Positions 5,169 through 51,829 of a stretch of 64,000 bases of DNA are shown piece after piece. The notes below the pieces were generated by a model. That model made no database searches and had not been told where the DNA came from. It was given only the letters and a program-made list of their open reading frames with translations. The DNA is from an uncultured Pseudomonadales bacterium (GTDB lineage Bacteria; Patescibacteriota; Microgenomatia; UBA1400; CAYXSR01). The first letter of the stretch is position 1; the number at the start of each line of letters is the position of its first letter. The translations under genes and the position numbers were made by a program. Location of the stretch: the NCBI GenBank assembly GCA_964430265.1, contig CAYSEI010000004.1:45872-109871 (forward strand), given 5' to 3'.

Positions 5169-6455
5169 ATGAAAATTACTGTAGTGGGGACCGGTTATGT
5201 TGGCTTGGTTACAGCCGCTATATTTGCCAGTTTTAACAACCAGGTATATGGTCTAGATATAGACCAGGAAAAAATTGATACTTTAAAAAAAGGTAAAGTG
5301 TTTTTTTATGAACCCGGACTTGAGGAATTGGTCCAATCAGGAATAGATAAAGGAAATCTTCATTTTACGACTTCATACAAAAAAGCAGTGCCTGAATCAG
5401 AAGTCATTTTTATCTGTGTTGGCACTCCGCCAAAGAAAAATGGTGATTATGATTTAAAATATGTTTTATCTTCTGCAGAATCAATTGCCAAGAATTTAAA
5501 AAAATATTCAGTAGTGACAGTTAAAAGCACAGTTCCGCCAGGTACAAATGACAAAGTCAAAGAGGTTATGGATAAAAATACAAGTGTTTCTTATGACTTG
5601 GCAGCCTGTCCTGAGTTTTTAAGGGAGGGTAGTGCAGTAGAAGATTCTCTTAATCCTTCCAGGATTGTAATTGGTACGGATTCTGAAAAGGCTAAAGAAA
5701 AGCTTCTTAAGCTGCACAAACAAATTAAAGGTCCGCGATTAGTAACTGATGTTTCTAGTGCACAGTTAATCAAATATGCAAGTAATGCATTTTTAGCCAC
5801 AAAAATTTCATATATCAACTTCCTTGCCCGGCTTTGTGATAAAGTTGGTGCTGATATTAATGAAGTAAGCAAGGGATTGGGAATGGATCCCCGGATCAGC
5901 TCCTCATTTTTAAGGGCAGGCATTGGCTATGGAGGTTCTTGTTTTCCCAAAGACACTTGGGCACTAATCCGATTTGCTAAAAGAAAAGGTGAAGAGTTTA
6001 CTTTTTTAAAGCAGGTTGATAATGTCAACAAAACTCAGGTGGAATACTTTTTAAACAAAGCTGAAAAACTGGCTGATGATAGCTTACAAAGCAAAAAAGT
6101 AACTGTTTTGGGGTTATCTTTTAAACCGGAAACAGATGACATGCGTGAAGCTCAGTCAATTCCATTAATTAATGGTTTAAATAAAAGAGGGGCTAAAGTT
6201 ACTGCAACCGATCCGGTGGCAATTAAAAACGCCCAAAATTTGATTGAAGGGATAAAATATGAAAAAGATGTTTACAAAGCACTTGAAAACAGTGAGATGC
6301 TGATTTTAGTTACGGAGTGGGATAAATACAAAAACCTTGATTTTAAAAAAGTCAAAAAATTAATGAATAAACCAGTTGTTCTTGACGGCAGAAATATTTA
6401 CAATCCGGATAAAATGAAAAAATTGGGGTTTGTTTATAAAGGAGTCGGTCAATAA
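5169..6455 (+). CDS. ugd: UDP-glucose 6-dehydrogenase / nucleotide-sugar dehydrogenase
   Basis: N-terminal VVGTGYVGLV NAD-binding motif, catalytic-Cys motif GGSCFPKDT, 428 aa. Confidence 0.85.
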   Translation: MKITVVGTGYVGLVTAAIFASFNNQVYGLDIDQEKIDTLKKGKVFFYEPGLEELVQSGIDKGNLHFTTSYKKAVPESEVIFICVGTPPKKNGDYDLKYVLSSAESIAKNLKKYSVVTVKSTVPPGTNDKVKEVMDKNTSVSYDLAACPEFLREGSAVEDSLNPSRIVIGTDSEKAKEKLLKLHKQIKGPRLVTDVSSAQLIKYASNAFLATKISYINFLARLCDKVGADINEVSKGLGMDPRISSSFLRAGIGYGGSCFPKDTWALIRFAKRKGEEFTFLKQVDNVNKTQVEYFLNKAEKLADDSLQSKKVTVLGLSFKPETDDMREAQSIPLINGLNKRGAKVTATDPVAIKNAQNLIEGIKYEKDVYKALENSEMLILVTEWDKYKNLDFKKVKKLMNKPVVLDGRNIYNPDKMKKLGFVYKGVGQ

Positions 6456-7411
6456 TGAAAACTGCATTAATTACTGGAGTTACAGGCCAGGACGGATCAT
6501 ATCTAGCAGAATTGCTTTTAAAAAAAGAATACAAAGTGATTGGCATGATTAGGGAAAACAATGGAATCGATGATGAGAATATTAAGCATATAAAAAAAGA
6601 ATTGGTAATTGAAAGTGGTGATCTTTTAAATAAAGAATCACTTTTAAATATTTTTAAAAAACATAAAATTGATGAGGTTTACAATCTTGGTGGAATTACT
6701 TTTATACCTGCATCCTGGGAAAATCCCACAAAAACGTTTAATGTAAATACGCTTGGATATACAAGATTATTAGAATTAATTAAGGATAAATACCCCAATG
6801 TGAGAATATTTCAGGCAAATTCAGCAAAAATATTTGGCAAGCCTGACAAATCACCTCAGGATTTGGAAACAAAAATTAATCCGCAGGATCCTTATGGCAC
6901 CTCAAAAGCAGCAGCGCATTTGTTAACTAACAATATGCGAAAACAATTTGGCATTTATGCTGTTTCTGGTATTATGTATAATCATGAATCTGAAAGAAGA
7001 GGAGAGCAGTTTGTTACGCGTAAAATTACCAGGGGTGCGGTTAAAATAAAAAGGGGAATGCAAAAAGAGCTTAAGCTGGGTAATTTGGATGCACAAGTTG
7101 ACTGGGGTTATGCACCTGATTTTGTTAAAGCAATGTGGCTTTCACTACAGCAGGAAAAAGCAGACGACTATATTTTTGCTACAGGCAAGGTGCATAAAGT
7201 AAAAGATATTTGTAAAACAGCTTTTTCCTATCTTGATTTGGACTGGCAGGATTATGTTAAAGTGGATAAAAAGTTTTATAGGGAACAAAAAGGAAAATTG
7301 TTTACCGGTGATATCAGCAAAGCAAAAGAAAAACTTGGTTGGGAGCCGGAAACTTCTTTTGAAGAAATGATAGAAAAAATGGTTGAGTTTGATTTAAAAA
7401 ATATTAACTAG
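6455..7411 (+). CDS. GDP-mannose 4,6-dehydratase family protein (divergent paralog)
   Basis: [19 protein letters not shown] at the N-terminus, [17 protein letters not shown] (Gmd signature NHES.RRG..FVTRKI), 318 aa. Confidence 0.65.
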
Positions 7412-7427: not shown

Positions 7428-8390
7428 ATGAAAAAAGCATTAATCACTGGAATTACAGGACAAGACGGTTCATATTTGGCAGAACTTTTGTTAGAAAAAG
7501 GTTACGAAGTATATGGTTTAGTAAGAAGGACATCTCTGCCTAATAATGAAAGAATTGCACATATATTAGAAAAAGTTAATCTTGTATCAGGTGATTTAGC
7601 AGACCAGCATTCATTAACCAGGGCAGTAGAGGAAGTTCAGCCGGATGAAGTATATAATTTAGCTGCACAAAGCTTTGTTTCAACTTCCTTTAAGCAGCCT
7701 GTTTTAACCGGGGATATTACCGGATTGGGTGTAGCAAGAATGCTTGAAGCTTTAAGAATGGTTAAGCCGGATGCGAAATTTTATCAGGCTTCTTCTTCTG
7801 AAATGTTTGGCAAGGTAACAGAAACACCGCAGACGGAAAAAACTTTTTTTCATCCACGCAGTCCTTACGGAGTGGCTAAGGTTTATGGTCACTGGATAAC
7901 TATTAATTACCGTGAGTCTTATGATATGTTTGCAGTTTCGGGAATTCTTTTTAACCATGAATCACCTAGAAGAGGAACAGAATTTGTCACCCGGAAAATT
8001 AGCAAAGCTGCTGCAAGAATCAAGCTGGGCAAGCAGGAAAAGCTTTATCTTGGCAATATGGAAGCAAAAAGGGACTGGGGGTTTGCAAAAGATTATGTGG
8101 AAGCAATGTGGCATATGATGCAGCTGCCGGAACCGGAAAATTTTGTTATAGGAACCGGGGAAACACATTCGGTTAGGGATTTCTGCCAAAGAGCTTTTGC
8201 AGTAGTTGACCTTGACTATACAAAATATGTAGAAACTAAAAAAGAATTTTTACGTCCGGCTGAAGTTGACTATTTAAAAGCAGATTATTCCAAAGCTAAA
8301 GAAAAACTTGGCTGGGAGCCAAAAACCAGTTTTGATGAGTTGGTAAAAATTATGGTGGAAAAAGATTTGGAAAGGGAAAAAAATAAATGA
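7428..8390 (+). CDS. gmd: GDP-mannose 4,6-dehydratase
   Basis: [44 protein letters not shown] and [10 protein letters not shown]. Closer to canonical Gmd than the upstream paralog. Confidence 0.75.
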
Positions 8391-9319
8391 AAGTTTTAGT
8401 AACCGGAGGCGCAGGGTTTATTGGCAGTCATTTGTGTAAAGACCTTTTAAATCAAGGTCATTTTGTATACTGTGTTGACAACCTTTTAACCGGAAGAAGA
8501 GAAAATATCCTGGAACTTGAAGGGAATAAGAATTTTTGTTTTATTAGCGCAGACGTTTCCAAGGCAAAAATTGATCTGGAAGTTAAATATATTTTTCATC
8601 TTGCTTCGCCGGCAAGTCCAGTGGATTACCAAAACCTGCCTTTGGAAACAATGTTTGCTAACTCTAATGGGACAGAAAACATGCTGCGGCTTGGAGTAGA
8701 TAATAAAGCACGCTTTGTTTTAGCATCCACTTCCGAGGTTTATGGAGATCCTCTAGAGCACCCGCAAAAGGAAACATATAACGGAAATGTAAGTACAACC
8801 GGTCCTAGGGCCTGTTATGACGAAAGTAAAAGATATGCAGAAACATTAACCAAAATATTTGAAAAAAAATATGCTTTGGATGTCAGAATTGTCAGGATAT
8901 TTAATACATACGGTCCTAACATGAGAAAAGATGACGGAAGGGTAGTTTCCAATTTTATTAATCAAGCAATTGCAAACCAGCCGTTAACCGTATACGGCAA
9001 GGGAGAGCAAACGCGTTCATTTTGTTATGTTGATGATATGGTTAAAGGTTTAAACAAACTAATGTTTAATCCGGATATAAAGGGAGAGATTGTTAATATC
9101 GGCAACCCGCATGAAGTAACTATCTTGGAATTGGCGGAATTGATTCGAAAACTAGTCGGAAGCAGTTCAGAGATTATATTTAAACCATTACCACAAAATG
9201 ATCCGCAAAAAAGGTGTCCGGATATAACTAAGGCAAAAGAAATTTTAAAATGGGAACCGCAGATTGAATTAAAACAAGGATTACAAGAAACTATAAAATA
9301 TTTTAAAGGATTAAAATGA
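8387..9319 (+). CDS. UDP-glucuronate decarboxylase (UDP-xylose synthase)-like SDR
   Basis: [39 protein letters not shown] and [11 protein letters not shown]. The architecture and length (310 aa) match UXS/ArnA-decarboxylase-like enzymes. Sits with ugd, which would supply UDP-GlcA. Confidence 0.65.
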
Positions 9320-10467
9320 AGATTGTAGTTGTAATGCCGACTTACAATGAAGAAGACAACATTGGCAAAATGATTGATGTTCTGCATGAAGAGATTTTTC
9401 CGCAGCTGAAAAAGCATGATTTGGAATTATTGGTTGTTGATGATAATTCACCAGATAAAACACAAGAAATTGTTAAAAAGAAAACAAATAAATATGAAAA
9501 TATTCATCTTTTTACAGGAGAAAAAAAAGGTTTGGGAGTAGCTTATGTCAGGGGAATAAAATATGCAATGGAAAATCTGGATGCAGAATGGGTTGTGGAA
9601 ATGGATGCTGATTTTCAGCACAACCCAAATGACCTTGTGCCAATGATCTTAGCAGCAGAGGAAGGTTATGACTATATTATCGGTTCCCGCTACATAGAAG
9701 GCGGTTCAATACCCAAAGAATGGGCTTTAATACGCAAACTTCAATCAGTTTTAGGCAATTTGCTTGCCAGGATTGTTCTTTGGCTGCCACAAATTCATGA
9801 TGTTACCAGTGGGTTTAAAATGAGTAAGGTCAAAGAGTATTTGGATAAAATAGATATTGATGAAATTGTCAAGGAAGAATATTCCCGTAATTATGCTTAC
9901 AAAATATTTCTGCTTTTTAAAATGATTAAACAGGGAGCGAAAGTAAAAGAAGTTCCAATTAATTTTCAATCCCGCGAAGAAGGGGACTCAAAAATGCCCA
10001 AAAATAATATTAAGGATTCTTTACGCATGGTTCTGACTCTTAGATGGTTGGAGTCGCAGCGGTTTATAAAAGTCTGTGCAGTTGGAACTATTGGAGCGGC
10101 CATTCAGTTTACTATTTTTAATATCCTAAGAAGGACACTTAATCCGGAAATTGCCAATGTGATTGCAGTAGAGTTTGCAATTATTGGCAACTTTATTATT
10201 AATAATTCATGGACTTTTAAAGATAAAAAGCTCAAGATTGAAAAAGGATTGCAAAAGATCATTCTTAAATTTGCCCAATTCAACCTTTTTTCATTAGGTT
10301 CCTTATTAATTCAGTACATAGTAATGAAAATCGGCACTAACATTCTGGGTCGCGGCTTTATAATTGAAAATGGGTTAGTAGTAGTTGGAATTTTATTGGG
10401 TTTAATTTACAATTTTACAATCTACACCAAACTGATTTGGAAAACAACAAATAAAAAAGAAAAATGA
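9316..10467 (+). CDS. polyprenyl-phosphate sugar synthase (DPM1/GtrB-like GT2) fused to C-terminal GtrA-like membrane domain
   Basis: N-terminal VVMPTYNEEDNI...VVDDNSPDKT...EMDADFQHNP (GT2 DPM1-like DxD region). C-terminal KVCAVGTIGAAIQFTIFNILRR...GNFIINNSWTFKDKK is the GtrA-family signature. Confidence 0.75.
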   Translation: MKIVVVMPTYNEEDNIGKMIDVLHEEIFPQLKKHDLELLVVDDNSPDKTQEIVKKKTNKYENIHLFTGEKKGLGVAYVRGIKYAMENLDAEWVVEMDADFQHNPNDLVPMILAAEEGYDYIIGSRYIEGGSIPKEWALIRKLQSVLGNLLARIVLWLPQIHDVTSGFKMSKVKEYLDKIDIDEIVKEEYSRNYAYKIFLLFKMIKQGAKVKEVPINFQSREEGDSKMPKNNIKDSLRMVLTLRWLESQRFIKVCAVGTIGAAIQFTIFNILRRTLNPEIANVIAVEFAIIGNFIINNSWTFKDKKLKIEKGLQKIILKFAQFNLFSLGSLLIQYIVMKIGTNILGRGFIIENGLVVVGILLGLIYNFTIYTKLIWKTTNKKEK

Positions 10468-12653
10468 TTAAAGAACTTTCTGTTTTTTTCCCTGCCTACA
10501 ATGAAGAGAAAAATATTTCAAAAACTGTTAAAGATACTGTCAAAGTTCTTGAAGACAAGGGAATAAAATACGAGGCACTTGTAATTGATGACGGGTCCAA
10601 AGATAAAACAGCAGAAATTGTAAAAAAGCTTCACAAAGAGAATGAAAAAGTAAAACTTGTTTCCCACAATGAAAATAAAGGATACGGCGCTGCAATAAAA
10701 ACCGGTATGAAAAACTCCCAATATGAGTGGGTATGTTTTACAGACTCAGATGGGCAGTTTGATTTTAAGCAAATCAAAAGGTTTTTAAAACATACTGATG
10801 AAAATGATTTGATCATTGGATACAGGGAGAAGAGGTCCGATAGCTTAGTAAGAAGGTTTATTGCTAATGTTCTTTTAAGAATCTGGAATCTGATTTTGTA
10901 TGGTGTTTGGTTTAAGGATGTGGATTGCGGGTTTAAACTCTTTAAAAAGCAAGTGGTTGATAAGGTTTATCCTAAATTAGTTACAGAAAGTGCTATTACT
11001 GAAACTGAATTTATGGTCCGTAGCAAAAGAAATGGATTTAAAATAAACGAAGTGCCGGTAACCCACCATGCACGAACCGGAGGCGACCAGACGGGTGGAA
11101 ATTTTAAAGTTGTGAGTAAAGCTGTTTTACAAGGTATAAAACTATATTTATCTTTTTTAAAGGAATTCTTTTCCCAGTGGCAAAATATTTTGTTTTTTAT
11201 AATTCTTGTTTTAGGAGCTTTTTTAAGGTTTTTTAAATTAAGAGCTTATATGACTTTTTTAGGTGATCAAGGAAGGGATGCTTTGGTAGTTTGGAAGATG
11301 TTAAAAGAGGGGGACATTACTTTTTTGGGTCCGGTTGCATCTATGGGCGGTTTTTACTTAGGTCCAATCTATTATTATTTTATGGTCCCTTTTTTATTTC
11401 TTTGGAACTACAATCCGGTTGGTCCCGCTGTGATGGTGGTTTTGTTTGATTTAGCTACTATTGTTTTAATTTACAAATTTTGCAATGAGTTTATTAACAA
11501 AAAAGTTGCACTTTTATCAACATTTCTTTATGCAATTTCAAACCTTGTAATTGTCTATTCCCGTTTTTCCTGGAACCCCAATATCTTGCCTTTTTTCTCT
11601 TTTCTTGTGTTTTATTCTTATGCCAAGGCAATAATTAAAAAGCAAAAATTCTTTTATTTAATTGCAGGTTTATCTACCGGAGTAATTGTCCAGCTGCATT
11701 ATATGGCAGTTTTAATGTTTCCTTTTATGATTTTGGCTTACTTTCTTTTGGATAATAAAAAGGAGATAAAAGATATATTTCAGCTTATTGGCGGATTTTT
11801 AATTACTTTTTCACCTTTTTTACTTTTTGAGATCAGGCATGGATTTCCCAATTTCAATACTATTTTTAATTTTGTTTTAAAAGGTGAAGAAGTTGGCCTT
11901 CTTACAGGAGGTAAGCAGGTGGTTAACAATACTTTTATTAGTTTAGGCACCCAATTGTTTTCTGGGATTCTGACACCTGGATATAAATTACTGGGTAAAA
12001 TTTTACTTATATTTTCTTTAATTGGAATCTTTTTTGAATATCTGACGCCAAGAATTATGAAAAGAAAACAAACTATGTTATTGTTTTTTTTAATTAGCTT
12101 GATATTTATTTCTTCAATATACAATAATCCTATTCATGATCACTATTTGACATTTTTGTTCTTCTTGCCGCCATTGATTTTTAGTATTGCTTTTTTCAAG
12201 TTTGTTGATAATAGAAAGCTTCTTTTTATTCCCGGAGCAATATTAATCTTTTTACTAGTAAGAGCTAATTTTCAAGAGAATCTCTTACATGGAGAACCAA
12301 ATAGACAGCTAGCACAGCTTAACCGGGTAACTAATATAATAATTGATAAAGCTCAGAATAATAAATTCAACTTTGCCATGGCAACACCGGGCAATTCAGA
12401 TCATGCATACCGTTATTTTTTAACCAAAAAAGGATATGAACCTGTAAAAATTGAAAATCGAATTGAGGAAGAGTTAATGGTTGTATGTGAAGTCCAAGAT
12501 TGTAACCCTATAGATAAGAGTCTTTGGGAGATTAGGGAATTTGGAGATGCTAAAATAGAAGGCAAGTGGAGTGATGATGAAGTGATTTTTGTTTACCGTC
12601 TAGTACACACTAAAAAATCAGAAGATTTAATTGGACAACCTGCTAAAAAATAG
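10464..12653 (+). CDS. fusion protein: DPM1/GtrB-like GT2 domain plus GT-C-like polytopic membrane domain (D-x-G-R-D family)
   Basis: Residues 1 to about 230 are SVFFPAYNEEKNI...VIDDGSKDKT...FTDSDGQFD (GT2). The remainder is a roughly 500-aa multi-TM domain with LGDQGRDALVVWKML...LGPVASMGGFYLGPIYYYFM, homologous to ORFs 14572, 47452, 49065 and 59337. Confidence 0.65.
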   Translation: MIKELSVFFPAYNEEKNISKTVKDTVKVLEDKGIKYEALVIDDGSKDKTAEIVKKLHKENEKVKLVSHNENKGYGAAIKTGMKNSQYEWVCFTDSDGQFDFKQIKRFLKHTDENDLIIGYREKRSDSLVRRFIANVLLRIWNLILYGVWFKDVDCGFKLFKKQVVDKVYPKLVTESAITETEFMVRSKRNGFKINEVPVTHHARTGGDQTGGNFKVVSKAVLQGIKLYLSFLKEFFSQWQNILFFIILVLGAFLRFFKLRAYMTFLGDQGRDALVVWKMLKEGDITFLGPVASMGGFYLGPIYYYFMVPFLFLWNYNPVGPAVMVVLFDLATIVLIYKFCNEFINKKVALLSTFLYAISNLVIVYSRFSWNPNILPFFSFLVFYSYAKAIIKKQKFFYLIAGLSTGVIVQLHYMAVLMFPFMILAYFLLDNKKEIKDIFQLIGGFLITFSPFLLFEIRHGFPNFNTIFNFVLKGEEVGLLTGGKQVVNNTFISLGTQLFSGILTPGYKLLGKILLIFSLIGIFFEYLTPRIMKRKQTMLLFFLISLIFISSIYNNPIHDHYLTFLFFLPPLIFSIAFFKFVDNRKLLFIPGAILIFLLVRANFQENLLHGEPNRQLAQLNRVTNIIIDKAQNNKFNFAMATPGNSDHAYRYFLTKKGYEPVKIENRIEEELMVVCEVQDCNPIDKSLWEIREFGDAKIEGKWSDDEVIFVYRLVHTKKSEDLIGQPAKK

Positions 12654-12661: not shown

Positions 12662-13426
12662 ATGAATAAAAAATATCTATCAGTAATTATCCCGGCGTTT
12701 AATGAAGAGGAAAATTTCAAACGCGGGGCTTTAAAACAAGTAAGCGAGTATTTAGAAAAACAAACTTATGAATATGAGGTTTTATTGGTTGATGACGGTT
12801 CAATTGACAAGACATATGACCTTCTTAAAGACTATATTAAAAACAAGAAAAATTGGAAATTAGTTAAAATTCCTCATCAAGGTAAGTATAAGGCAATAAA
12901 AAAAGGTGTTCAAAAAGCAAGTGGTGAGCTGGTACTCTTTACCGACTTTGACCAATCCACTCCCTTGTATGAATCGGAAAAATTAATTAAAGCAGTTAAA
13001 AACGGAAGTGACTTGGCAATCGGTTCCAGGGAAATTATTGGTGCCAAAAGGGAAGAGGAACCTTTTTACCGTCATTTAATGGGAAAAGGATTTAATTTTG
13101 TTGTCAGAATTATTACAGGACTTTCTTATCATGATACGCAATGCGGATTTAAACTGTTTAAAAAAGAACCGATAAAAAAGATCATAGAAAATGTATCTGT
13201 TGCAGAGAAAAGAAAGGTTGCGGATGCATATACAGGTGCTTTTGACGTGGAAATTCTTTATTTAGCCCAAAAGATGGGTTATAAATCAAAAGAAGTTCCT
13301 GTTGACTGGAAGCATTTTAAAACCCAGCGTGTAAATCCGATTAAAGATTCTTTAAGGATGTTTATAGATATTCTCAAAATTAGGGTTGCTGATTTATTGG
13401 GGGAATATAGAAAAAGTGATGAATAA
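12662..13426 (+). CDS. DPM1/GtrB-like GT2 polyprenyl-phosphate glycosyltransferase
   Basis: SVIIPAFNEEENF...LLVDDGSIDKT...FTDFDQSTP. 254 aa and soluble. Confidence 0.75.
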   Translation: MNKKYLSVIIPAFNEEENFKRGALKQVSEYLEKQTYEYEVLLVDDGSIDKTYDLLKDYIKNKKNWKLVKIPHQGKYKAIKKGVQKASGELVLFTDFDQSTPLYESEKLIKAVKNGSDLAIGSREIIGAKREEEPFYRHLMGKGFNFVVRIITGLSYHDTQCGFKLFKKEPIKKIIENVSVAEKRKVADAYTGAFDVEILYLAQKMGYKSKEVPVDWKHFKTQRVNPIKDSLRMFIDILKIRVADLLGEYRKSDE

Positions 13427-44942: not shown

Positions 44943-46391
44943 TTAATTAATAAATTTTTTTGCTTTAAGAACAAGATATTCACCTTCAGGTTTTCCATCT
45001 GTTAAATCTTGGAAATATACTTTCATGTTATTATTGGGAAATAGATAATTAAACCCCTTTTCTTCAAACATTGCGAGAGCAATCTGCTTTGATTCTCCTC
45101 TCCAGTGAGGATTAACAAATTCTGAATTTACAAAATATATTTTATTGTTATTCAATTCTGAATAATTGCTTTTAAAATATGTATAGATATTTTTGCTGAT
45201 TTTTCCGCGTTTAAATATCCAGTGGTGCTGGTAATTAAAAGAGTTTGTGACGAAAAAGAGGGAAATATAAACAAAAAGGAATAAAATACTTTTAAAATTA
45301 AATTTTAAGAGTAAAAGACCTAAAAATAAAGACATAAAAAAATGGGGGAGGGTGAGGGAATAAGCAAATTTATGCCAGGGGAGAGTGAGTACCGGAGAAA
45401 GAAAAACAATGTATCCAAAAATAGCAAAAATTATTAATCTTACATTATTTTTTTTAAAGTATTCTTTTCTATTTTTTAAAATATTAAAAATAAATAAGAC
45501 AAACATCAATATTAAACTAATAGCTGTTGTGTAAGTTAAAAATCTGAATTCATTTAGCAAGCGAGGATTAATTCTTATACCCGGCCCGATAAAGTCCACA
45601 AAGCTTTCTGCTACGTTTAATGACCATAAACTATACCAAAAGGTGTTGTTTAAGAGCTTAGACAAGCTTAGAGAGACTTGGTATACATATCCACCCGGTG
45701 TTCCCATAACAATTATTCTTAAATAAAGATAAGTTATTAAAAGAATAAAAGATAAAAGAAAATATAAATAAATATCCTTTGAGTATTTTTTCTTTTTTTG
45801 CTTAAAAAAGAAAAACAGTATTAAAAGCAAAAAAGGTATAATAATTGCGGTTTCTTTGCTTAAAAAAGATAAAATTAAAGCAATAAAGCTGATAATTAAG
45901 TTAATATTTTTCTCTTTTTTCAGATATTGTATAAAAAACCAGATTGAAGACATAGCAAAAAAAGCAAGCATGTTTTCCTGGATCTGTGTAATCCAAGCAA
46001 CGCGTAAAATGTGGTGTGAAGAAAAAGTATAGATTAAAGTTGCCAGGATTGAAACGGATTTTCTTCTGGTTAACAGACTGATTATATGATAGCATAAGTA
46101 TATTGATCCCAGATAAAAAGCAAAAGAGGTTAGGTGATAGAAATATGCATGAGTTGATAATATTTTGTTAGCTAAAAAATAAAAGCTTTGTAAAGGTAGT
46201 GGGCGGTAAAAAGGCAGCTCTTTGTTTTTAAAAGTAAAAAAATTGGCAAACTGTTTTAAGTTTTTTGCCTGCGAAATGGAAAAATTATAAAAGTCATCAC
46301 TTAAAAAGAAATTTGACAAGGCCGGCTGAAAAAGAAGAAATAAAAATAAAACAAAGAATATTAAAAATACCTTTTTTGAACTTATAAACAT
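44943..46391 (-). CDS. polytopic membrane protein (possible GT-C, polymerase or ligase-like), function unknown
   Basis: 482 aa, highly hydrophobic N-terminal two-thirds with acidic loop FFLSDDFYNF, and a soluble C-terminal roughly 100 aa. Confidence 0.35.
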   Translation of the reverse strand: MFISSKKVFLIFFVLFLFLLFQPALSNFFLSDDFYNFSISQAKNLKQFANFFTFKNKELPFYRPLPLQSFYFLANKILSTHAYFYHLTSFAFYLGSIYLCYHIISLLTRRKSVSILATLIYTFSSHHILRVAWITQIQENMLAFFAMSSIWFFIQYLKKEKNINLIISFIALILSFLSKETAIIIPFLLLILFFFFKQKKKKYSKDIYLYFLLSFILLITYLYLRIIVMGTPGGYVYQVSLSLSKLLNNTFWYSLWSLNVAESFVDFIGPGIRINPRLLNEFRFLTYTTAISLILMFVLFIFNILKNRKEYFKKNNVRLIIFAIFGYIVFLSPVLTLPWHKFAYSLTLPHFFMSLFLGLLLLKFNFKSILFLFVYISLFFVTNSFNYQHHWIFKRGKISKNIYTYFKSNYSELNNNKIYFVNSEFVNPHWRGESKQIALAMFEEKGFNYLFPNNNMKVYFQDLTDGKPEGEYLVLKAKKFIN

Positions 46392-46418: not shown

Positions 46419-47462
46419 ATGAAAATTGCAGTATCTTTTAAAAACCACAAAAACGAAGCTAAAAGAGGCATAGATTTTTATACTGATAAAATAGTGGAAG
46501 GAATTAAATCAAGGGAAAAAATTGAACTGGTTAAAGAAGATGCAGCAGATTTAATTCACTTGACCAGTGCAGATTTTTTTAACAACCCCAGATTTGATCT
46601 GCTGAATAAAAAATATATTTACACAATTCACGACTTAATTCCGATTAAGTTCTCCGAGCATTTTCCTAAAGGAATAAAAGGAAGCACAAAATGGATGTTT
46701 AACCGGATTATTATGAAAAAAGCAAAATTTATGATAACCGATTCCGTAAGCTCAAAAAACGATATTGTAAAGATTATTAAATATCCTGAAGAAAAGATTA
46801 CAGTTATTCCATTAGCTCCAAGAGAAAATTTTAAATTAATGACAAAAGAAGAAAAGGAAAAGTTTTCCTCTGTCAAGGAAAAATATAATATTGCTGATGA
46901 TTTTGTATTATATGTGGGTGACGTAAACTGGAATAAAAACTTGCCTGGACTAGCAAAAGCATGTATTGAACTTGAATATCCGCTAGTTGTTGTTGGATCT
47001 AAAGCAGATAAAGAAAAATTCAATTCCAAACATCCAGAAAACAAGCCGCTTAAGGAATTCAAACAAATCCAAAAGAAAAACCCTGAATTAATCATTACAA
47101 CAGGATTTATACCTGAACGCTATTTAGTTTATATATACAATATTGCCAGACTATACTGCCAGCCGTCATATTATGAAGGATTTGGATTACCTGTTCTTGA
47201 AGCAATGGCATGCGGATGTCCGGTTTTATCTTCAAATCAGGGAAGTCTGCCTGAAGTAGGCAATAAAGCAGCAGTATATTTTAATCCCTATTATAAAGAA
47301 GAAATCAAAAGAAAACTTAAAAAATTTTGGAAATTAAAAGATAATCAGGTAAAATATCAAGAGTTAAGCAAAAATTGTCTGCAAAATGCAGACCAATATT
47401 CTTGGGAACAAACATTGGAAAAGACATTTAATGTTTATAGAAAGGCACTAAATGAAAATTGA
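46419..47462 (+). CDS. GT4 (Glycos_transf_1) glycosyltransferase
   Basis: YYEGFGLPVLEAMACGCPVLSSNQGSLPEV. 347 aa. Confidence 0.7.
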   Translation: MKIAVSFKNHKNEAKRGIDFYTDKIVEGIKSREKIELVKEDAADLIHLTSADFFNNPRFDLLNKKYIYTIHDLIPIKFSEHFPKGIKGSTKWMFNRIIMKKAKFMITDSVSSKNDIVKIIKYPEEKITVIPLAPRENFKLMTKEEKEKFSSVKEKYNIADDFVLYVGDVNWNKNLPGLAKACIELEYPLVVVGSKADKEKFNSKHPENKPLKEFKQIQKKNPELIITTGFIPERYLVYIYNIARLYCQPSYYEGFGLPVLEAMACGCPVLSSNQGSLPEVGNKAAVYFNPYYKEEIKRKLKKFWKLKDNQVKYQELSKNCLQNADQYSWEQTLEKTFNVYRKALNEN

Positions 47463-49068
47463 TAAACATAAAATCCTTTTGATTTTTATTATTTTAATAG
47501 CGGTTTTTTTCCGTTTTTATAATTTAAAAGATAATTTTAATTTTACTTATGATGCAGGCCGGGACCATATCCGCATAAACAACATATATGAAAATAAAGA
47601 TATAAAAATTGTTGGAACAGAAACTGATATTCCAGGTGTTTTTAGCGGTGCTTTTTATTATTATATGCTTATTCCTGGTCAAATAATTACTAAGGGAAAC
47701 CCGAATGCATCTATTTATCTTTTAGCATTTATAAATTTATTAGCTGTCCCCTTTATATATTTAATAACTAAAGAGTTATTTGATAATAAAACTACAGCCT
47801 TGATCGCTTCTTTTATTTCTGCAGTTTCATATTTTTTAGTCAACTATTCCCGTTTTCTTTCCAATGCTTCGCCCTTGCCTTTATCTATTGCTGTTTTCTT
47901 TTATGGTTTGCTTTTATGGAAGAAAGGCAAAAAAAACGGTTTTCCCTTAGCAATGCTGGGGCTTGGATTATCTACGCAATTTGACTATTTATATATTTAC
48001 TTATTTGTATACCTGCTGATAATCAAACTTTTATATAATCCTAAATTAAATAAAAAAGAACTTTTAAAGGGTTTTGTTGCAGGTTTAATAACTTTTAGCA
48101 CTTATATAATCGCAGAAATTAAATTTAAGTTTTTAGGAACAAGAGAACTGATAAGTTTTATTGCTGAGGGAGTAAATGAAGTTTCAGCTCAAGCAGCAAT
48201 TGATAAATATATTAATAAAATTGTAAGAATTACGGGGTATAACTTTTTCCATTTTAATTTTTTCCTTTCTTTATTAATTTTTGTTTTTATGATTTATTTT
48301 TCTTTTACAAGAACCAAGAAGAAAAAATATATAGAAAACCTTGAATTTGTTTTGTTGTGGTTTTTTTCATCTCTTTTAGTTCTTGGATTTAATACTGGAG
48401 GAGTAAATCTGCCGTTGATTATTAATAGCGGAATAATTTTTCCAGCAATTATTTTAGTTGCCTATTTTGGGCAAAAAGTTTATGCCAAAAATAAATTATT
48501 ATTTGCTTTAATGATTGTTATGATTTTCACAAGCAATCTTATTCTATATTTTGAAAGCAACTGGGTACCTTCAGATCTGAATAATCCCGGAAATAAAATG
48601 CTTTTGAAATATCAAAAACAAGCGCTTGATTATATGTATCAAGAAGCAGATGGAAAGGACTTTGCTTTTTGTGGGCTTACTCAGCCTCTTTTTATCAACT
48701 CGACATGGGCACACTTATTTGAATGGTATGGCAAAAGCAAATATGGATATCTTCCATACTGGTCTGGCCCAAAGCAAAATCCGCAATTTGGAGCATCTGA
48801 TATTCAAAAAGAAGAAGAGTTCAAGGAAACAAGATTTATTATCTATGAACCACCCTATGGGTTAAAAGAGGAAATGTATACTCATACGAGGATTGTTGCT
48901 GACAGAACTACAGAGGTTGTTGAAAAAAAGAACTTTGGTGCAATTGAAGTGGAAAAAAGACGAATCTTAAAAGGAGAGGAAAGAGAACAAGCGGAAAAAG
49001 AATTTCAATTAAAAAGCAAACAATACAAAGATGTTCTAGATAGTGATATTCGCTACAATTGCTTATGA
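47452..49068 (+). CDS. GT-C-like membrane protein, D-x-G-R-D family (tandem duplicate A)
   Basis: YDAGRDHIRINNIYENKDIKIVGTETDIPGVFSGAFYYYMLIPGQ. C-terminal soluble domain ends RRILKGEEREQAEKEF. Confidence 0.5.
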   Translation: MKIDKHKILLIFIILIAVFFRFYNLKDNFNFTYDAGRDHIRINNIYENKDIKIVGTETDIPGVFSGAFYYYMLIPGQIITKGNPNASIYLLAFINLLAVPFIYLITKELFDNKTTALIASFISAVSYFLVNYSRFLSNASPLPLSIAVFFYGLLLWKKGKKNGFPLAMLGLGLSTQFDYLYIYLFVYLLIIKLLYNPKLNKKELLKGFVAGLITFSTYIIAEIKFKFLGTRELISFIAEGVNEVSAQAAIDKYINKIVRITGYNFFHFNFFLSLLIFVFMIYFSFTRTKKKKYIENLEFVLLWFFSSLLVLGFNTGGVNLPLIINSGIIFPAIILVAYFGQKVYAKNKLLFALMIVMIFTSNLILYFESNWVPSDLNNPGNKMLLKYQKQALDYMYQEADGKDFAFCGLTQPLFINSTWAHLFEWYGKSKYGYLPYWSGPKQNPQFGASDIQKEEEFKETRFIIYEPPYGLKEEMYTHTRIVADRTTEVVEKKNFGAIEVEKRRILKGEEREQAEKEFQLKSKQYKDVLDSDIRYNCL

Positions 49069-50678
49069 ATAAAAAAACAAAAAATATATTACTAATAATT
49101 ATTTTAATAATTGCAGTATTTTTCCGTTTTTATAACCTCGAGGATAATTTTAATTTTTCTTATGACCAGGGAAGAGATCATTTAAGGGTAAATAACATGA
49201 TTGATAACTTAGAGGTAAAAATTGTTGGAACGGAGACAGATATTCCAGGAATTTTTAGCGGGTCTTTATATTACTACATGTTGATCCCCGGGCAAATAAT
49301 CAGTAATGGCAGTCCCAATGCTTCAATATATTTATTAGCCTTTTTGAACTTATTGAGCATTCCTTTAGTTTATTTAATAACCAAGGAGTTGTTTAAAAGT
49401 AAGATAACGGCTTTAATTGCTTGTTTTATTGCTACTTTTTCATATTTCCTGGTGAACTATTCACGTTACCTTTCAAATGCTTCTCTTTTACCTTTAACAA
49501 CTGCAATTTTCTTTTATGGTTTGCTTTTGTGGATAAAAGAAAAGAAAAACGGTTTTCCGCTTGCTATTTTAGGATGGGGATTGTCAACGCAAGCTGATTT
49601 TTTCTATATCTATCTTTTTGTATTTATACTTTTAATTAAGGTAATGTATAATCCCAGAATAAAAAAGAAAGAACTTTTAAAAGGATTTATTGCGGGTTTA
49701 ATTACTTTTAGCACATTTATTGTAGCAGAAATTAAATTTAAATTTTTGGGAATAAAAGAGCTAACAAAATATATTAGTCAGTCATCAACTCAAGTTAGCG
49801 TAGCTTCTGCAATAGATAAGTTTATAAATAAAATGGGGGTAGTGACAACTCATTCCTTTTTTAAGTTTAATCTTTTTTTGTCCTTATTAATTTTAGGATT
49901 TATGATTTATTTTTCTTTTACAAGAACAAAAGATAAGAAAAATATAAGAAGTCTTGAGTTTGTTATGTTTTGGCTTTTATCTTCAAGCTTACTTTTTGGT
50001 TTTGATACTGGTGCGGTTAACGTAGCAATAATTATTAATGGAGCACTGGCCTTTCCAATCATAATATTGTTAGCTTTTTTTGCTAAAAAAGTTTATGAAA
50101 AGAATAAATTCTTATTTATAACAATGATACTATTAGTTTTTATCAGCAATTTAAGCTTGTATTTTGAAAGCAATTGGGTGCCCAATGAATTGTCTTATCC
50201 GGGAAATCACTTTCTTTTAAAATATGAAAAGCAAGTTTTGGATTATATGTATAAAGAAGCTGATAATCAGGAGTTTTCTTTTTGTGCAGTTACTCAGCCT
50301 GCATTTATAAATTCTACCTGGGCATATTTGTTTGAATGGTATGGTGAAAATAAGTATGGGTATTTGCCGTATTGGTCAGGAACTGAACAAAATCCACAGT
50401 TTAGCGATACAGAAATTCAAAAAGAAGGAGAATTTAAAGAAACCAGGTTTATAATTTATGAACCACACATAAGTAAAGATAGTGAGTTATATGTTTCCAC
50501 AAAATTATTTGCAGATAGAACTACAGAGTTGATTGAAAGTAAACAAATTAATGAATTTATTATTGAAAAAAGAAGAATCTTGAAAGGTGAAGAAAGAGAA
50601 AAAGCGGAAAAAGTATTTAAGAAAAAAATTAAACAAAACCAGAATTTTATTTATGATCACAGATATAACTGCTTATGA
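49065..50678 (+). CDS. GT-C-like membrane protein, D-x-G-R-D family (tandem duplicate B)
   Basis: ATG 49065 (ATGA overlap; track TTG 49059). YDQGRDHLRVNNMIDNLEVKIVGTETDIPGIFSGSLYYYMLIPGQ. Collinear and highly similar to 47452 along its full length. Confidence 0.5.
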   Translation: MNKKTKNILLIIILIIAVFFRFYNLEDNFNFSYDQGRDHLRVNNMIDNLEVKIVGTETDIPGIFSGSLYYYMLIPGQIISNGSPNASIYLLAFLNLLSIPLVYLITKELFKSKITALIACFIATFSYFLVNYSRYLSNASLLPLTTAIFFYGLLLWIKEKKNGFPLAILGWGLSTQADFFYIYLFVFILLIKVMYNPRIKKKELLKGFIAGLITFSTFIVAEIKFKFLGIKELTKYISQSSTQVSVASAIDKFINKMGVVTTHSFFKFNLFLSLLILGFMIYFSFTRTKDKKNIRSLEFVMFWLLSSSLLFGFDTGAVNVAIIINGALAFPIIILLAFFAKKVYEKNKFLFITMILLVFISNLSLYFESNWVPNELSYPGNHFLLKYEKQVLDYMYKEADNQEFSFCAVTQPAFINSTWAYLFEWYGENKYGYLPYWSGTEQNPQFSDTEIQKEGEFKETRFIIYEPHISKDSELYVSTKLFADRTTELIESKQINEFIIEKRRILKGEEREKAEKVFKKKIKQNQNFIYDHRYNCL

Positions 50679-51829
50679 AAAAAATCAAAAAGTATTTGAA
50701 TAAAAAAAGAATATTAGTTTGGCTGCTGCTTTTATTTGGAGTTGCATTAATGGGTACCCTTTTTCCCTTAAAAACCGGTTATCTTGCTGGAGGAAATATG
50801 GATGCATACAAATCCAAGCCTTGGCTTTACTGGCTGGCAAATTTTGACGGCGACCACTATATTTCCATTGCCAAAAGGGGATATGTCCAGTTTCAGCAAG
50901 CCTTTTTCCCTTTATATTCCTATTTAATTTCGCGTATTGCTTCTTTTTTTAAAAATTCTTTTCAGACGTACTTTTTTTCCGGAATAGCTTTATCTTTTGT
51001 TTGCTTCCTTTTATTCTTCCGCTATTTAAAAAGACTTATAAAAAAGGATTTTAAAAAATTTAGTTTTAAAAAAACAAAGTTAATCTATCTTTTATATCCT
51101 ACCGCTTTCTTTTTAATTTCCATTTATACAGAATCATTGTTTTTGTTTTTAGCAGTTGCAGCTTTTTATTTTTACAGCAAGAAAAGAAAAATTCTATATA
51201 TCTTTTTCAGCAGTCTGGCAACAGCTACCAGGTTAATTGGTGTATTTATTCCTTTTTCAATATTTTTAGAATATTTAATTAAAGCTTTTGATGACGAAAC
51301 AAACAAAAAAATATTTTCAGTTGAAACACTAAAAAAAGGTTTAACATCAATTTTAGCTTCCAGCGGTCTTTTATATTACATGAACTATCTTTGGCAGACA
51401 AAAAATGATCCTTTATATTTTTTTCATGTCCAGCCTGAGTTTGGCGCCAACCGCAGCGGGGGAAAGTTAATTCTTCCCTACCAGGTTTTATGGCGTTACA
51501 TTAAAATTATTTTTACTGCCAACCCACGTACTGTAGAATATTTTGTTGCTGTTCAGGAGATTGCTTTAACAGTACTTTTTATTGCAGTATTTTTCTGGGC
51601 AATTAAAAAGGTAAAATCCAGGTACCTGATTTATTCCGGGGCAGTAATTATTTTACCCACTTTAACCGGAACTCTTTCTTCTATGCCAAGATATATTATG
51701 GCGGCTTTTCCTTTGTTTATAGTTCTTAGCAAACTTAAAAAAAGAAAGAAAAAAATTCTTTTGGCGGTATTTGCAATTCTTTTAATTATTAACCTGATAT
51801 TATTCAGCCGCGGATATTTTGTAAGTTAG
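50675..51829 (+). CDS. polytopic membrane protein, PIG-V/GT76-like mannosyltransferase candidate
   Basis: N-terminal loop WLANFDGDHYISIAKRGY resembles the WD..HY..IA..GY motif of GPI mannosyltransferase 2-like (Mannosyl_trans2) proteins. 384 aa, multi-TM. Confidence 0.35.
   Translation: MKKIKKYLNKKRILVWLLLLFGVALMGTLFPLKTGYLAGGNMDAYKSKPWLYWLANFDGDHYISIAKRGYVQFQQAFFPLYSYLISRIASFFKNSFQTYFFSGIALSFVCFLLFFRYLKRLIKKDFKKFSFKKTKLIYLLYPTAFFLISIYTESLFLFLAVAAFYFYSKKRKILYIFFSSLATATRLIGVFIPFSIFLEYLIKAFDDETNKKIFSVETLKKGLTSILASSGLLYYMNYLWQTKNDPLYFFHVQPEFGANRSGGKLILPYQVLWRYIKIIFTANPRTVEYFVAVQEIALTVLFIAVFFWAIKKVKSRYLIYSGAVIILPTLTGTLSSMPRYIMAAFPLFIVLSKLKKRKKKILLAVFAILLIINLILFSRGYFVS

Follow-up and report, generated by a model that had tools for sequence, protein, structure and literature searches.

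Introduction

The closest described relatives of the locus reported here are the multi-component transmembrane glycosylation systems of Gram-positive bacteria, among them CsbB-GtcA-YfhO, GtlA-GtlB, CsdAB/CD/EF-CflA and GacI/J-GacK-GacL (reviewed in PMC8035078). They combine a family 2 glycosyltransferase (GT2) that makes a sugar linked to undecaprenyl phosphate (C55-P), a flippase of the GtrA or Wzx type, and a PMT_2- or YfhO-type glycosyltransferase of the C fold (GT-C), the GT2 adjoining the GT-C. There is one GT-C per locus and there are one to three per genome, each dealing with a single sugar. We analyzed a 64-kb stretch of contig CAYSEI010000004.1 from an uncultured bacterium (the whole stretch is called the window below), in which a 47-kb block of genes at positions 5169-51829 appears to follow the same logic. 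Judged by resemblance, GT2 synthases, a flippase and GT-C enzymes are all present and would carry out sugar transfer. Unlike the known systems, the window holds 19 to 21 GT-C proteins of at least six subfamilies, far fewer synthases and GT2::GT-C fusions, and its host appears to be of the Patescibacteria type. We propose, with moderate confidence, that this locus forms the core of a conserved route to a complex surface glycoconjugate, made mostly on the outer face of the membrane as a glycopolymer primed on polyprenyl monophosphate.

The rhamnose-rich cell-wall polysaccharide of lactococci, or polysaccharide pellicle (PSP), offers a second comparison. In the model proposed for it, WpsA (a GT2) and WpsB (a small transmembrane (TM) protein) prime synthesis on C55-P, cytoplasmic glycosyltransferases extend the chain, the Wzx-type WpsG flips it, the GT-C protein WpsH polymerises it and the GT-C protein WpsJ ligates it; in vitro support covers the WpsA/B and WpsC steps only (PMC10821137). 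With the PSP genes (WpsA/B, WpsC-F, WpsG, WpsH, WpsI and WpsJ; PMC10821137) the locus shares Leloir glycosyltransferases, a Wzx-type flippase, GT-C proteins, rhamnose genes nearby and the absence of WbaP/WecA. In the PSP model, the GT-C proteins stand in for Wzy and WaaL. As a speculation, the small membrane protein beside a soluble GT2 in PSP may be paralleled by the product of gene 38691 described below. However, PSP has two GT-C proteins, the likeness shown does not include sequence-level orthology, and the window has no counterpart of the chain-length regulator WpsI or of the rhamnan ABC exporter.

In scale, the locus is closer to the lipomannan/lipoarabinomannan (LM/LAM) and arabinogalactan (AG) pathways of the Corynebacteriales. 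There (Ppm1, PimE, MptA/B/C, AftA-D, EmbA-C and Pmt), more than 15 non-redundant GT-C enzymes share very few polyprenyl-phosphate-sugar donors and assemble a branched extracytoplasmic glycan with them. MptA/B-like, PimE-like and, by way of an ortholog, AftD-like members appear to be present here. The mycobacterial genes, in contrast, are scattered over the genome and do not form one block, and the prevailing families of the window (DE-loop PMT_2, D-x-G-R-D PMT_2 and YfhO) differ from the mycobacterial ones. No decaprenyl-phosphate-arabinose pathway, phosphatidylinositol anchor genes or Emb proteins were detected in the window.

The division of labor also recalls the eukaryotic pathway of the endoplasmic reticulum (ER; ALG1/2/11, DPM1/ALG5, Rft1, ALG3/9/12/6/8/10 and oligosaccharyltransferase (OST)), with GT4 enzymes inside, flipping in which a protein of the multidrug/oligosaccharidyl-lipid/polysaccharide (MOP) superfamily is implicated, GT2 enzymes that make dolichyl-phosphate (Dol-P) sugars, and GT-C enzymes on the far side. 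The window differs in having no STT3/OST homolog that we could find and no sign of an N-glycan or of a pyrophosphate-linked carrier. Finally, a DE motif, a PMT match, best-match names such as PgfS and PgfM1 and an epimerase in the locus are shared with the actinobacterial and eukaryotic protein O-mannosyltransferases (PMT, GT39) and with the PgfS/PgfM1/PgfE/PgfM2 system of S. mutans. Against that likeness, MIR domains are absent, the scores fall far below equivalog cut-offs, and the number of paralogs is far above that of any known protein O-glycosylation system.

Results

Organization of the block

We counted open reading frames (ORFs) of at least 100 aa and refer to each gene by its first position, with (-) for the minus strand. 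The block holds 34 ORFs, 32 of them on the plus strand; the exceptions lie at 27979-29604 and 44943-46391. At its 33 junctions, 22 pairs of genes overlap, and in nine of these the overlap is exactly 1 or 4 nt; the widest gap is 36 nt. A first annotation made from the letters of the DNA (the sequence-only reading) had described about 40 genes, nearly all on the plus strand and joined by overlaps of 1-4 nt. The strand bias and the tight packing were borne out, but the gene number was not. Some of the longer overlaps arise because the longest ORF was taken; the database copy of 40947, for example, begins 12 codons downstream. Scans of the window for promoters and terminators gave no signal above shuffled controls, and we infer the operon structure from gene spacing alone.

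A Pfam search of all ORFs assigned to the block Ugd, three sugar-nucleotide enzymes of the short-chain dehydrogenase/reductase (SDR) family, eight GT2 proteins, two GT4 proteins and one MOP/Wzx flippase (23316), in agreement with the sequence-only reading, which had named a flippase, GT4s and nucleotide-sugar enzymes. The same reading had described an operon-like glycosylation locus with about 20 GT-C enzymes, and the combination of Pfam, blastp, NCBIfam and hhalign yielded 19 candidates in the block and 21 in the whole window, which also encodes 10 GT2 and two GT4 proteins. By summed ORF length, GT-C genes make up about 70% of the block (about 32.5 kb). Glycan genes continue in both directions, with RmlB/C/D upstream (1498-4020) and GT2 genes, a nucleotidyltransferase, two GT-C genes and a GalE-like gene downstream, which brings the total to about 62 kb. 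Nothing interrupts this co-directional run except trmD, a Doc-MazE toxin-antitoxin pair, metK and a nuclease gene.

The polytopic proteins are probably GT-C enzymes

Compared with profile models, 16 of the 19 polytopic candidates in the block passed the Pfam gathering thresholds of GT-C families. Ten did so for PMT_2/PMT (10464, 16138, 33879, 35492, 37186, 39281, 40947, 44943(-), 47452 and 49059), three for YfhO (17615, 24755 and 30728), two for PTPS_related (19999 and 21635) and one for PIG-V (50675), all of which we take to be families of the GT-C clan. The assignment of the other three (14572, 13386 and 27979(-)) draws on evidence other than thresholds. GT-C enzymes place a catalytic Asp or Glu near the end of the first TM segment (TM1). 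An acidic residue lies within about 25 residues of the end of TM1 in every candidate except 17615, where it occurs further along the post-TM1 loop, and 13386, which has distant ones only.

The largest group, family A, comprises five tandem genes between 33879 and 42632, whose products are 29-38% identical and carry W/R/I-D-E just past TM1 (blastp and alignment). Together with a distant relative at 16138, they account for the six PMT_2/ArnT-like proteins with a DE loop named in the sequence-only reading. Identities to orthologs refer to related loci that we found through homologs of 40947 and 27979; L083, L087 and L088 belong to a Logan/JGI assembly, and L081 and L089 to GCA_964467735.1.

33879-35513, plus strand: putative family A GT-C with DE loop, in a variable slot (PMT_2 40.6 bits)
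35492-37189, plus strand: putative family A GT-C with DE loop (PMT_2 50.9 bits; L083 ortholog 64% identical)
37186-38703, plus strand: putative family A GT-C with DE loop (PMT_2 39.5 bits; L083 ortholog 66% identical)
39281-40993, plus strand: putative family A GT-C with DE loop (PMT_2 53.8 bits, PMT 37.8 bits; orthologs 67% identical in L083 and 46% in L086)
40947-42632, plus strand: putative family A GT-C with DE loop (PMT_2 64.2 bits, PMT 40.6 bits)
16138-17634, plus strand: putative PMT_2/PMT GT-C with DE loop, distant relative of family A, FTDEAIY after TM1 (PMT_2 61.2 bits, PMT 32.6 bits)

A search with 40947 returned 2693 homologs at E <= 1e-10; those that carry names are annotated as GT39 proteins from Gottesmanbacteria, Levybacteria or Patescibacteria and are 44-46% identical. 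The family A profile matches the solved structure of ArnT (5ezm, E 6.6e-4). An ArnT-type modification of lipid A was considered and rejected, as we saw no lipopolysaccharide (LPS) genes in the window; bacteria of the candidate phyla radiation are not known to have LPS.

Embedded in the family A array is one small membrane protein.

38691-39293, plus strand: small membrane protein of 200 aa with 4-5 TM segments (no Pfam or NCBIfam match)

Its ortholog (197 aa, 51% identical) occupies the same position in one related assembly (L083:7766-8359 and L084:473-1066). By analogy, one might speculate that it is a WpsB/GacJ-like membrane partner or activator of GT2 proteins that have no TM segment.

Family B is defined by the motif D-x-G-R-D, invariant in the C-terminal part of 10464 (treated with the fusions below) and in four other proteins. 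The sequence-only reading had five such proteins inside the block; the number is right, but the fifth, 59337, lies outside it.

14572-16134, plus strand: putative family B GT-C with D-x-G-R-D (blastp E 1e-19 to 1e-21 to 10464, 47452 and 49059; PMT_2 20.6 bits, below threshold)
47452-49068, plus strand: putative family B GT-C with D-x-G-R-D (PMT_2 39.1 bits; 67% identical to 49059)
49059-50678, plus strand: putative family B GT-C with D-x-G-R-D (PMT_2 34.8 bits)
59337-60797, plus strand: putative family B GT-C with D-x-G-R-D (PMT_2 41.3 bits; alignment)

The block contains one recent duplication, that of the adjacent genes 47452 and 49059; by blastp, no other pair of paralogs reaches 40% identity. 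Homology between families A and B spans the N-terminal GT-C module (hhalign 99.5%, E 4e-23); in this alignment the first Asp of D-x-G-R-D falls in the region of the DE motif.

Three proteins belong to YfhO proper (PF09586, threshold 28.5 bits) and are 29-33% identical to each other. Two others that had also been called YfhO-like are PTPS_related proteins.

17615-20005, plus strand: putative YfhO-family GT-C (YfhO 63.0 bits; 33% identical to 24755; orthologs 60% identical in L087 and 42% in L089)
24755-27163, plus strand: putative YfhO-family GT-C (YfhO 64.9 bits)
30728-32965, plus strand: putative YfhO-family GT-C (YfhO 114.9 bits, profile positions 27-614)
19999-21648, plus strand: putative PTPS_related GT-C with a YfhO-like C-terminus (PTPS_related 63.3 bits; YfhO 24.6 bits, below threshold)
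21635-23347, plus strand: putative PTPS_related and weakly PMT_2-like GT-C (PTPS_related 42.2 bits; 27% identical to 19999; no YfhO match)

The L087 ortholog of 19999 also carries the Pfam domain GT-C_AftD. The remaining candidates include the PIG-V-like protein that had been noticed from the sequence, and one of them (60842) lies outside the block.

44943-46391, minus strand: putative divergent PMT_2 GT-C with DD after TM1, in a variable slot (PMT_2 33.7 bits)
13386-14561, plus strand: putative MptA/MptB-like (GT87-type) GT-C with about 10 TM segments (NCBIfam TIGR03459 E 5e-15, MptB E 1e-6; neither reaches its cut-off)
50675-51829, plus strand: putative PIG-V-like (Mannosyl_trans2) GT-C (PF04188 35.4 bits, threshold 22.4)
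27979-29604, minus strand: orphan polytopic protein, probably GT-C (no Pfam or NCBIfam match; hhalign to family A)
60842-62089, plus strand: putative ALG3/ALG6/PIG-M/PimE-type GT-C of 415 aa (closest solved folds ALG3 and ALG6)

Gene 13386 has no match in the Pfam copy used; its positional counterparts in L092 and L090 are assigned to the Pfam family MptA_B_family. An additional match of 50675 is to the NCBIfam model "cell surface glycopolymer formation protein" (E 9e-8, short of the cut-off). The product of 60842 is the only protein here whose GT-C fold was confirmed; it is 9-16% identical to ALG proteins and has no Pfam match. For 27979(-) we found only four homologs, in which P-D-E-x-D-N-F after TM1 is invariant. 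Its hhalign match with family A covers 375 columns at 75% probability and E 2.6e-5, and we tentatively regard it as a GT-C protein. A Pfam scan of these homologs gave no match; one of them has a precomputed PF27757 assignment, a family absent from the Pfam copy that we used. At least two GT-C lineages here, 27979 and 60842, would then be without a family model.

It might be argued that the polytopic proteins are transporters or unrelated membrane proteins, or that the clustering is an annotation artefact. Four proteins (13386, 27979(-), 38691 and 60842) indeed have no match in the Pfam copy used, and sequence searches of solved structures returned nothing for family B, the YfhO-type protein 30728 or 13386. 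We give this explanation hardly any credence, since 16 proteins pass curated thresholds of GT-C families, profile-profile comparisons join families A and B and 27979, and the GT2::GT-C fusions described next make functional sense only for glycosyltransferases. These data support the assignment of the polytopic proteins as GT-C enzymes, as predicted from their sequences, rather than as transporters.

GT2 synthases and natural GT2::GT-C fusions

The GT2 proteins fall into three groups. Group I is a single blastp cluster (9316, the N-terminal part of 10464, 12662, 42648 and 52521), with best NCBIfam matches to PgfS, AglJ, ArnC, PpgS and Dol-P-hexose synthases, all below equivalog cut-offs.

9316-10467, plus strand: GT2, polyprenyl-phosphate-sugar synthase-like, with a fused GtrA/DPMS membrane domain (Glycos_transf_2 102.8 bits; GtrA_DPMS_TM 65.5 bits, threshold 26.1; best NCBIfam models PgfS, AglJ, ArnC and PpgS)
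10464-12653, plus strand: fusion protein with a GT2 synthase-like domain (residues 1-230) and a family B GT-C part (Glycos_transf_2 101 bits; PMT_2 36 bits)
12662-13426, plus strand: GT2, polyprenyl-phosphate-sugar synthase-like, no TM segment (best NCBIfam models PgfS and ArnC; clusters with 9316, the N-terminal part of 10464 and 52521)
42648-43385, plus strand: GT2, DPMS-like candidate polyprenyl-phosphate-sugar synthase (best NCBIfam models AglJ and PpgS; L083 ortholog 82% identical)
52521-53234, plus strand, outside the block: GT2, polyprenyl-phosphate-sugar synthase-like (Glycos_transf_2 121 bits; NCBIfam AglJ 107 bits, ArnC 75 bits)

The best solved relative of 42648 is the Dol-P-Man synthase of Pyrococcus (5mlz, E 7e-12). 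No stand-alone GtrA gene was found in the window, where GtrA_DPMS_TM occurs only fused to 9316. Group II resembles ordinary rhamnosyl- and hexosyltransferases, and group III is a pair of paralogs whose best solved relatives are GmaR and SunS.

27147-27992, plus strand: group II, rhamnosyltransferase-like GT2, Leloir type (NCBIfam rhamnosyltran E 1e-25, below cut-off; clusters with 54470)
32974-33882, plus strand: group II, EpsD-like GT2, Leloir type (Pfam, NCBIfam and clustering)
54470-55432, plus strand, outside the block: group II, rhamnosyltransferase-like GT2 (Pfam and NCBIfam)
43382-44161, plus strand: group III GT2, paralog of 44158 (Pfam, NCBIfam and clustering)
44158-44937, plus strand: group III GT2 (best solved relatives GmaR and SunS; homolog fused to a GT-C in L091)

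Two GT4 genes and one flippase gene complete the set.

29641-30711, plus strand: GT4 glycosyltransferase (Glycos_transf_1 100.8 bits)
46419-47462, plus strand: GT4 glycosyltransferase (Glycos_transf_1 90.3 bits)
23316-24764, plus strand: MOP-family (Wzx-type) flippase (Polysacc_synt_3 170 bits)

Against NCBIfam, the flippase scored 118 bits with the MOP flippase model and 110 bits with the O-glycosylation flippase model, both below cut-offs.

In the predicted topology of the 10464 protein, the cytoplasmic GT2 domain is followed by TM1 and then, just past this first TM segment of the GT-C part, by D-x-G-R-D on the outside. Among the top 150 clusters from a search of 1.8 billion representative proteins, about 9 show this architecture over the full length; the others contain stand-alone GT-C proteins of about 500 aa or GT2 proteins of about 240 aa. 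The homologous fusion in L092 is 45% identical, and the gene order there (fusion, GT2, MptA_B-family, PMT_2) is that of the window. A second kind of fusion, of 765 aa, was found at L091:18752-21049. Its N-terminus is 47% identical to 44158 (E 8e-76), and its C-terminal part is of the family B type (PMT_2 27.6 bits) with the motif GGDNARD, which ties the group III GT2s to GT-C function as well. The sequence-only reading had assumed three-component systems in which a GT-C enzyme uses a lipid-linked sugar made by a GT2, and the two independent kinds of fusion directly back this logic; we consider them the strongest in silico support for GT-C proteins using lipid-linked sugars made by these GT2s. 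The claim of at least seven DPM1/GtrB-like synthases, on the other hand, was an overcount. Within the block, four GT2s resemble such synthases directly (9316, the N-terminal part of 10464, 12662 and 42648), and two more, 43382 and 44158, are candidates through the fusion in a relative alone.

Gene order is conserved in related genomes

We then compared the block with the related loci. In two related uncultured genomes, the genes from 17615 to 44937 (about 27 kb) follow one another in the same order, variable slots apart, and even the placement of the 27979 homolog on the opposite strand is kept in both. The flippase gene 23316 is the most conserved gene of the block (77% and 67% identity). Orthologs are 42-82% identical, whereas paralogs within the window are 29-38% identical, indicating that the arrays predate the split of these genomes; and since each paralog has been retained across genomes, we argue that the paralogs are not redundant. 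Variation is found in two slots: in place of 33879, L083, L087 and L089 have a YfhO gene on the opposite strand, and in place of 44943, L081 has two different PMT_2 genes on the plus strand.

Clusters of the same make-up, with partly conserved order, occur in four further genomes (L086, L090, L091 and L092), where the 40947 homolog is 44-47% identical and is accompanied by PMT_2 arrays, YfhO, PTPS_related, MptA_B, GT2::PMT_2 fusions, GT4 and MOP flippases. In two of these, the PMT_2 arrays also contain a gene for a SAM-dependent methyltransferase (L090:7744-8379 and L091:6130-6729) that the window does not have, a hint of methylated glycans in some lineages. Every relative inspected has a cluster of this kind. 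The density of GT-C genes, described in the sequence-only reading as far beyond characterised loci, is therefore exceptional in comparison with studied organisms, but the locus is typical of its clade.

The island was also considered as a recent acquisition. We rejected this, because there is no tRNA or integrase gene, the GC content is close to that of the flanks, and synteny is kept in relatives. The window is AT-rich throughout (GC 0.28-0.36), and Rfam and tRNA scans of it gave no matches.

These comparisons bear on a rival explanation, namely that the block is a set of independent three-component systems in which each GT-C protein, with its own GT2, adds one type of sugar to a polymer or protein made elsewhere and thereby provides combinatorial surface variation. 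The characterised CsbB/YfhO, GtlA/GtlB, Csd and GacI/L systems work in this way (PMC8035078). In its favor, GT2 and GT-C genes are fused in 10464 and adjacent at 12662/13386 and 42648/40947; the slots 33879 and 44943 differ between relatives; and 47452/49059, at 67% identity, is a recent duplication. The ratio of enzymes speaks against it: with 19-21 GT-C proteins for just 4-7 candidate synthases, donors must be shared, and a private GT2 for each GT-C is not supported. Moreover, GT4s, rhamnosyltransferase-like GT2s and a MOP flippase inside the block point to synthesis of lipid-linked oligosaccharides as well. Several GT-C proteins belong to families that elongate lipid-linked glycans (the MptA/B-like 13386, the PIG-V-like 50675, the ALG3/PIG-M/PimE-like 60842 and, through the AftD-type match of its ortholog, 19999). 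The combinatorial machine proposed from the sequence also fits poorly with the genes from 17615 to 44158, which, except for 33879, are 1:1 orthologs in the same order in two genomes, unlike a rapidly shuffling repertoire. The small number of synthases, the cytoplasmic GT4s and rhamnosyltransferase-like GT2s with a flippase, the elongating families and the 1:1 paralogs fit an assembly pathway better than independent one-sugar decorations. We therefore consider independent decoration unlikely, and the block looks like an old, fixed pathway with a few variable slots rather than a combinatorial device.

A proposed assembly pathway

On the basis of family resemblance, the proposed pathway for a surface glycoconjugate would run as follows. 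The Rml enzymes would supply dTDP-rhamnose, Ugd UDP-glucuronate, and Gmd with an SDR a GDP-6-deoxyhexose, in addition to UDP-hexoses. Four to seven GT2s would load single sugars onto polyprenyl monophosphate, and some of the products would serve as donors. At least one such lipid-sugar may be the primer, onto which the two GT4s and the rhamnosyltransferase-like GT2s would add further sugars on the cytoplasmic side. Transport of lipid-linked sugars or oligosaccharide across the membrane would fall to the MOP/Wzx flippase and to the GtrA-like domain of 9316. Outside, some twenty non-redundant GT-C enzymes would draw on the few lipid-phosphate-sugar donors, each probably with its own linkage or acceptor, and would jointly lengthen and branch the glycan, possibly polymerise it, and in the end link it to a carrier, which could be a cell-wall polymer, a lipoglycan or proteins. 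Lactococcal PSP, streptococcal GAC and the CsbB-YfhO systems would be smaller examples of such a logic.

The sequence-only reading had seen no WbaP/WecA, Wzy or Wzz in the window, and Pfam likewise placed none of the WbaP/WecA, Wzy, Wzz, LytR-CpsA-Psr (LCP) or STT3 families in any window ORF of at least 100 aa; Wzy_C, O-antigen ligase and Wzz had no match among the window proteins. Only traces below threshold were seen, with EpsG (49059, E 0.0017; 13386, E 0.51) and with a repeat-unit polymerase (50675, E 0.026). Of a Wzx/Wzy pathway, the window thus contains the Wzx (23316), and a primer and Wzy/Wzz were not found in it. If priming takes place on polyprenyl monophosphate and GT-C proteins polymerise and ligate, the absence of WbaP/WecA and Wzy need not be a gap, and the locus would be another glycan pathway that may dispense with the WbaP/WecA primer and with Wzy.

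Could the set act mainly on proteins? PMT-like and YfhO-like enzymes might transfer sugars to Ser/Thr of secreted, S-layer or pilus proteins, with the other GT-C proteins extending the O-glycans, on the model of actinobacterial Pmt and the Pgf system of S. mutans. The PMT model (PF02366, threshold 22.7 bits) is exceeded by family A members (39281 and 40947) and 16138, which have the DE motif after TM1, as well as by 47452 (24.6 bits). The best NCBIfam names include PgfS and AglJ (S-layer glycoprotein glycosyltransferase) for GT2s and PgfM1 for one YfhO protein; the flippase resembles an O-glycosylation flippase, and 44158 the protein glycosyltransferases GmaR and SunS. A GT39 enzyme is also said to be required for protein glycosylation in Caldicellulosiruptor. 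However, all of these supporting matches fall far below family cut-offs. The DE motif, conserved in family A and 16138, does not discriminate, because ArnT-type enzymes share both the motif and the PMT match, and PMT_2 and YfhO enzymes are known to glycosylate teichoic acids and polysaccharides too (PMC8035078). The window contains neither a recognizable acceptor protein nor an oligosaccharyltransferase: no window protein matches STT3 or Wzy_C, as expected of STT3/PglB- or PglL-type transferases, and the STT3-type traces are weak (family A profile against an OST chain, E 0.014; weak PF02516 marks on some family A relatives). Known homologs of MptA/B, PimE/ALG3 and PIG-V, finally, act on lipid-linked glycans. 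As the main function of the locus, protein O-glycosylation seems to us improbable, somewhat more so than independent decoration; as an alternative or additional activity of the PMT-like and Pgf-like members it is live.

Several observations weigh against the assembly pathway that we favor. All NCBIfam matches to characterised synthases or GT-C enzymes lie far below equivalog cut-offs. The DE-loop family also matches the model of protein O-mannosyltransferases, so some of the GT-C enzymes may modify proteins instead of a polymer. GmaR and SunS glycosylate proteins or peptides in the cytoplasm, and the synthase role of group III hangs on one fusion in a relative. The GT-C assignment of 27979(-) is weak, the AlphaFold2 model from a four-sequence alignment having a pLDDT of 47.7. 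In addition, the window covers only 64 kb of the genome, and a WecA/WbaP, an LCP ligase, an ABC exporter or an oligosaccharyltransferase encoded elsewhere would alter the scheme.

Judging by the names of the family A homologs, the host is probably a Microgenomates-like member of the Patescibacteria. Genomes in this group are small, typically about 1 Mb, with few biosynthetic pathways. That so large an investment in GT-C genes is kept gene for gene suggests that the glycan is probably central to the envelope and possibly to attachment to a host; it may thus be key to the envelope of a major uncultured lineage. A bolder version of the pathway can be imagined, in which Microgenomates-type Patescibacteria share a clade-wide, two-sided, ER-like glycan assembly with about 20 GT-C enzymes and few donors, whose large, ordered lipoglycan or glycoprotein coat mediates host attachment. 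In it, GT2 and GT4 enzymes would make a polyprenyl-linked primer in the cytoplasm for a MOP flippase to export, the GT-C set would include families not recognised before (27979 and 60842 among them), and the GT2::GT-C fusions would combine production and use of the donor in a single protein. We put this forward as a possibility that is on balance doubtful. If true, no denser GT-C assembly line would be known, the locus would be what the luminal ALG pathway is in eukaryotes, and its coat would be a principal envelope structure of these ultrasmall cells.

What is unusual is the number and diversity of GT-C genes in one conserved block, the GT2::GT-C fusions, the lineages of 27979 and 60842, and the host lineage. 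All components belong to known superfamilies and the logic matches that of known multi-component systems (PMC8035078), with no new chemistry or mechanism demonstrated. Our literature search found no description of GT-C or glycosyltransferase clusters in Patescibacteria or Microgenomates, which is absence of evidence and not proof of novelty. The natural GT2::GT-C fusions offer tractable cases for the study of donor-acceptor coupling.

Sugar-nucleotide genes and neighboring genes

Genes for the supply of sugar nucleotides stand at the start of the block and on both of its flanks.

1498-2514, plus strand, outside the block: RmlB, dTDP-glucose 4,6-dehydratase (NCBIfam TIGR01181 477 bits, cut-off 365)
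2569-3120, plus strand: RmlC-like 3,5-epimerase (Pfam dTDP_sugar_isom 63 bits; NCBIfam rmlC 51.8 bits, below cut-off)
3121-4020, plus strand: RmlD-like reductase (Pfam RmlD_sub_bind 171 bits; NCBIfam rmlD 167.8 bits, cut-off of 224 not reached)
5169-6455, plus strand: Ugd, UDP-glucose/GDP-mannose dehydrogenase family (all three UDPG_MGDP_dh domains, E 1e-35 to 6e-65)
6455-7411, plus strand: GDP-mannose 4,6-dehydratase-like SDR (Pfam GDP_Man_Dehyd 353 bits; NCBIfam gmd 326 bits, below 415)
7428-8390, plus strand: Gmd, GDP-mannose 4,6-dehydratase (NCBIfam TIGR01472 444.6 bits, above 415)
8387-9319, plus strand: SDR epimerase, decarboxylase or reductase of sugar nucleotides (Pfam Epimerase 175 bits)
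55394-56131, minus strand: sugar-1-phosphate nucleotidyltransferase (NTP_transferase 39 bits; NCBIfam GlmU-like/RmlA-like below cut-offs)
62648-63559, plus strand: GalE-like SDR epimerase (Pfam Epimerase 192 bits; NCBIfam galE 188 bits, cut-off of 262 not reached)

For the SDR at 8387, the top NCBIfam models (a dehydratase, the C-terminal domain of ArnA and a UXS-like model) all scored below their cut-offs. Immediately 5' of the rml genes, at 346-1505 (plus strand), are genes for an RNaseH_like (PF04308) protein and a NUDIX hydrolase; the latter overlaps RmlB by 8 nt and may therefore act on nucleotide sugars.

Two genes on the minus strand accompany the nucleotidyltransferase 55394(-). The first (56121-57728) encodes 535 aa with an N-terminus weakly similar to nucleotidyltransferases and a C-terminus weakly similar to kinases of the aminoglycoside phosphotransferase type; the second (57695-58522) encodes 275 aa with a faint match to DUF7796 only. 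Neither has an NCBIfam match, and together with 55394(-) they may form a salvage set of sugar kinase and nucleotidyltransferase. Further downstream, 62073-62651 (plus strand) overlaps the 60842 gene by 17 nt and encodes a protein of 192 aa with a signal-peptide-like N-terminus, a C-terminal TM helix and no family match. This protein may be located at the cell surface, perhaps as an acceptor or partner.

Directly after the block lies a toxin-antitoxin pair on the minus strand. Its toxin gene (Doc/Fic type, 51804-52202; Pfam Fic 57.7 bits) shares 26 nt with the 3' end of the PIG-V-like gene, which runs on the other strand, and a gene for a MazE/AbrB-type antitoxin of 78 aa (52199-52435; PF04014 40.5 bits) is upstream of the toxin gene. 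As to metK, the nearest relatives of its product (66% and 60% identity, GC about 0.41) are on contigs of metagenome-assembled genomes (MAGs) labelled "uncultured Gammaproteobacteria" (L001 and L002), followed by MAGs of Patescibacteria and Saccharibacteria at 56-58%; the MetK hits span 52-66%, and none is syntenic with the window. The Gammaproteobacteria labels are possibly unreliable; another possibility is a transfer of metK.

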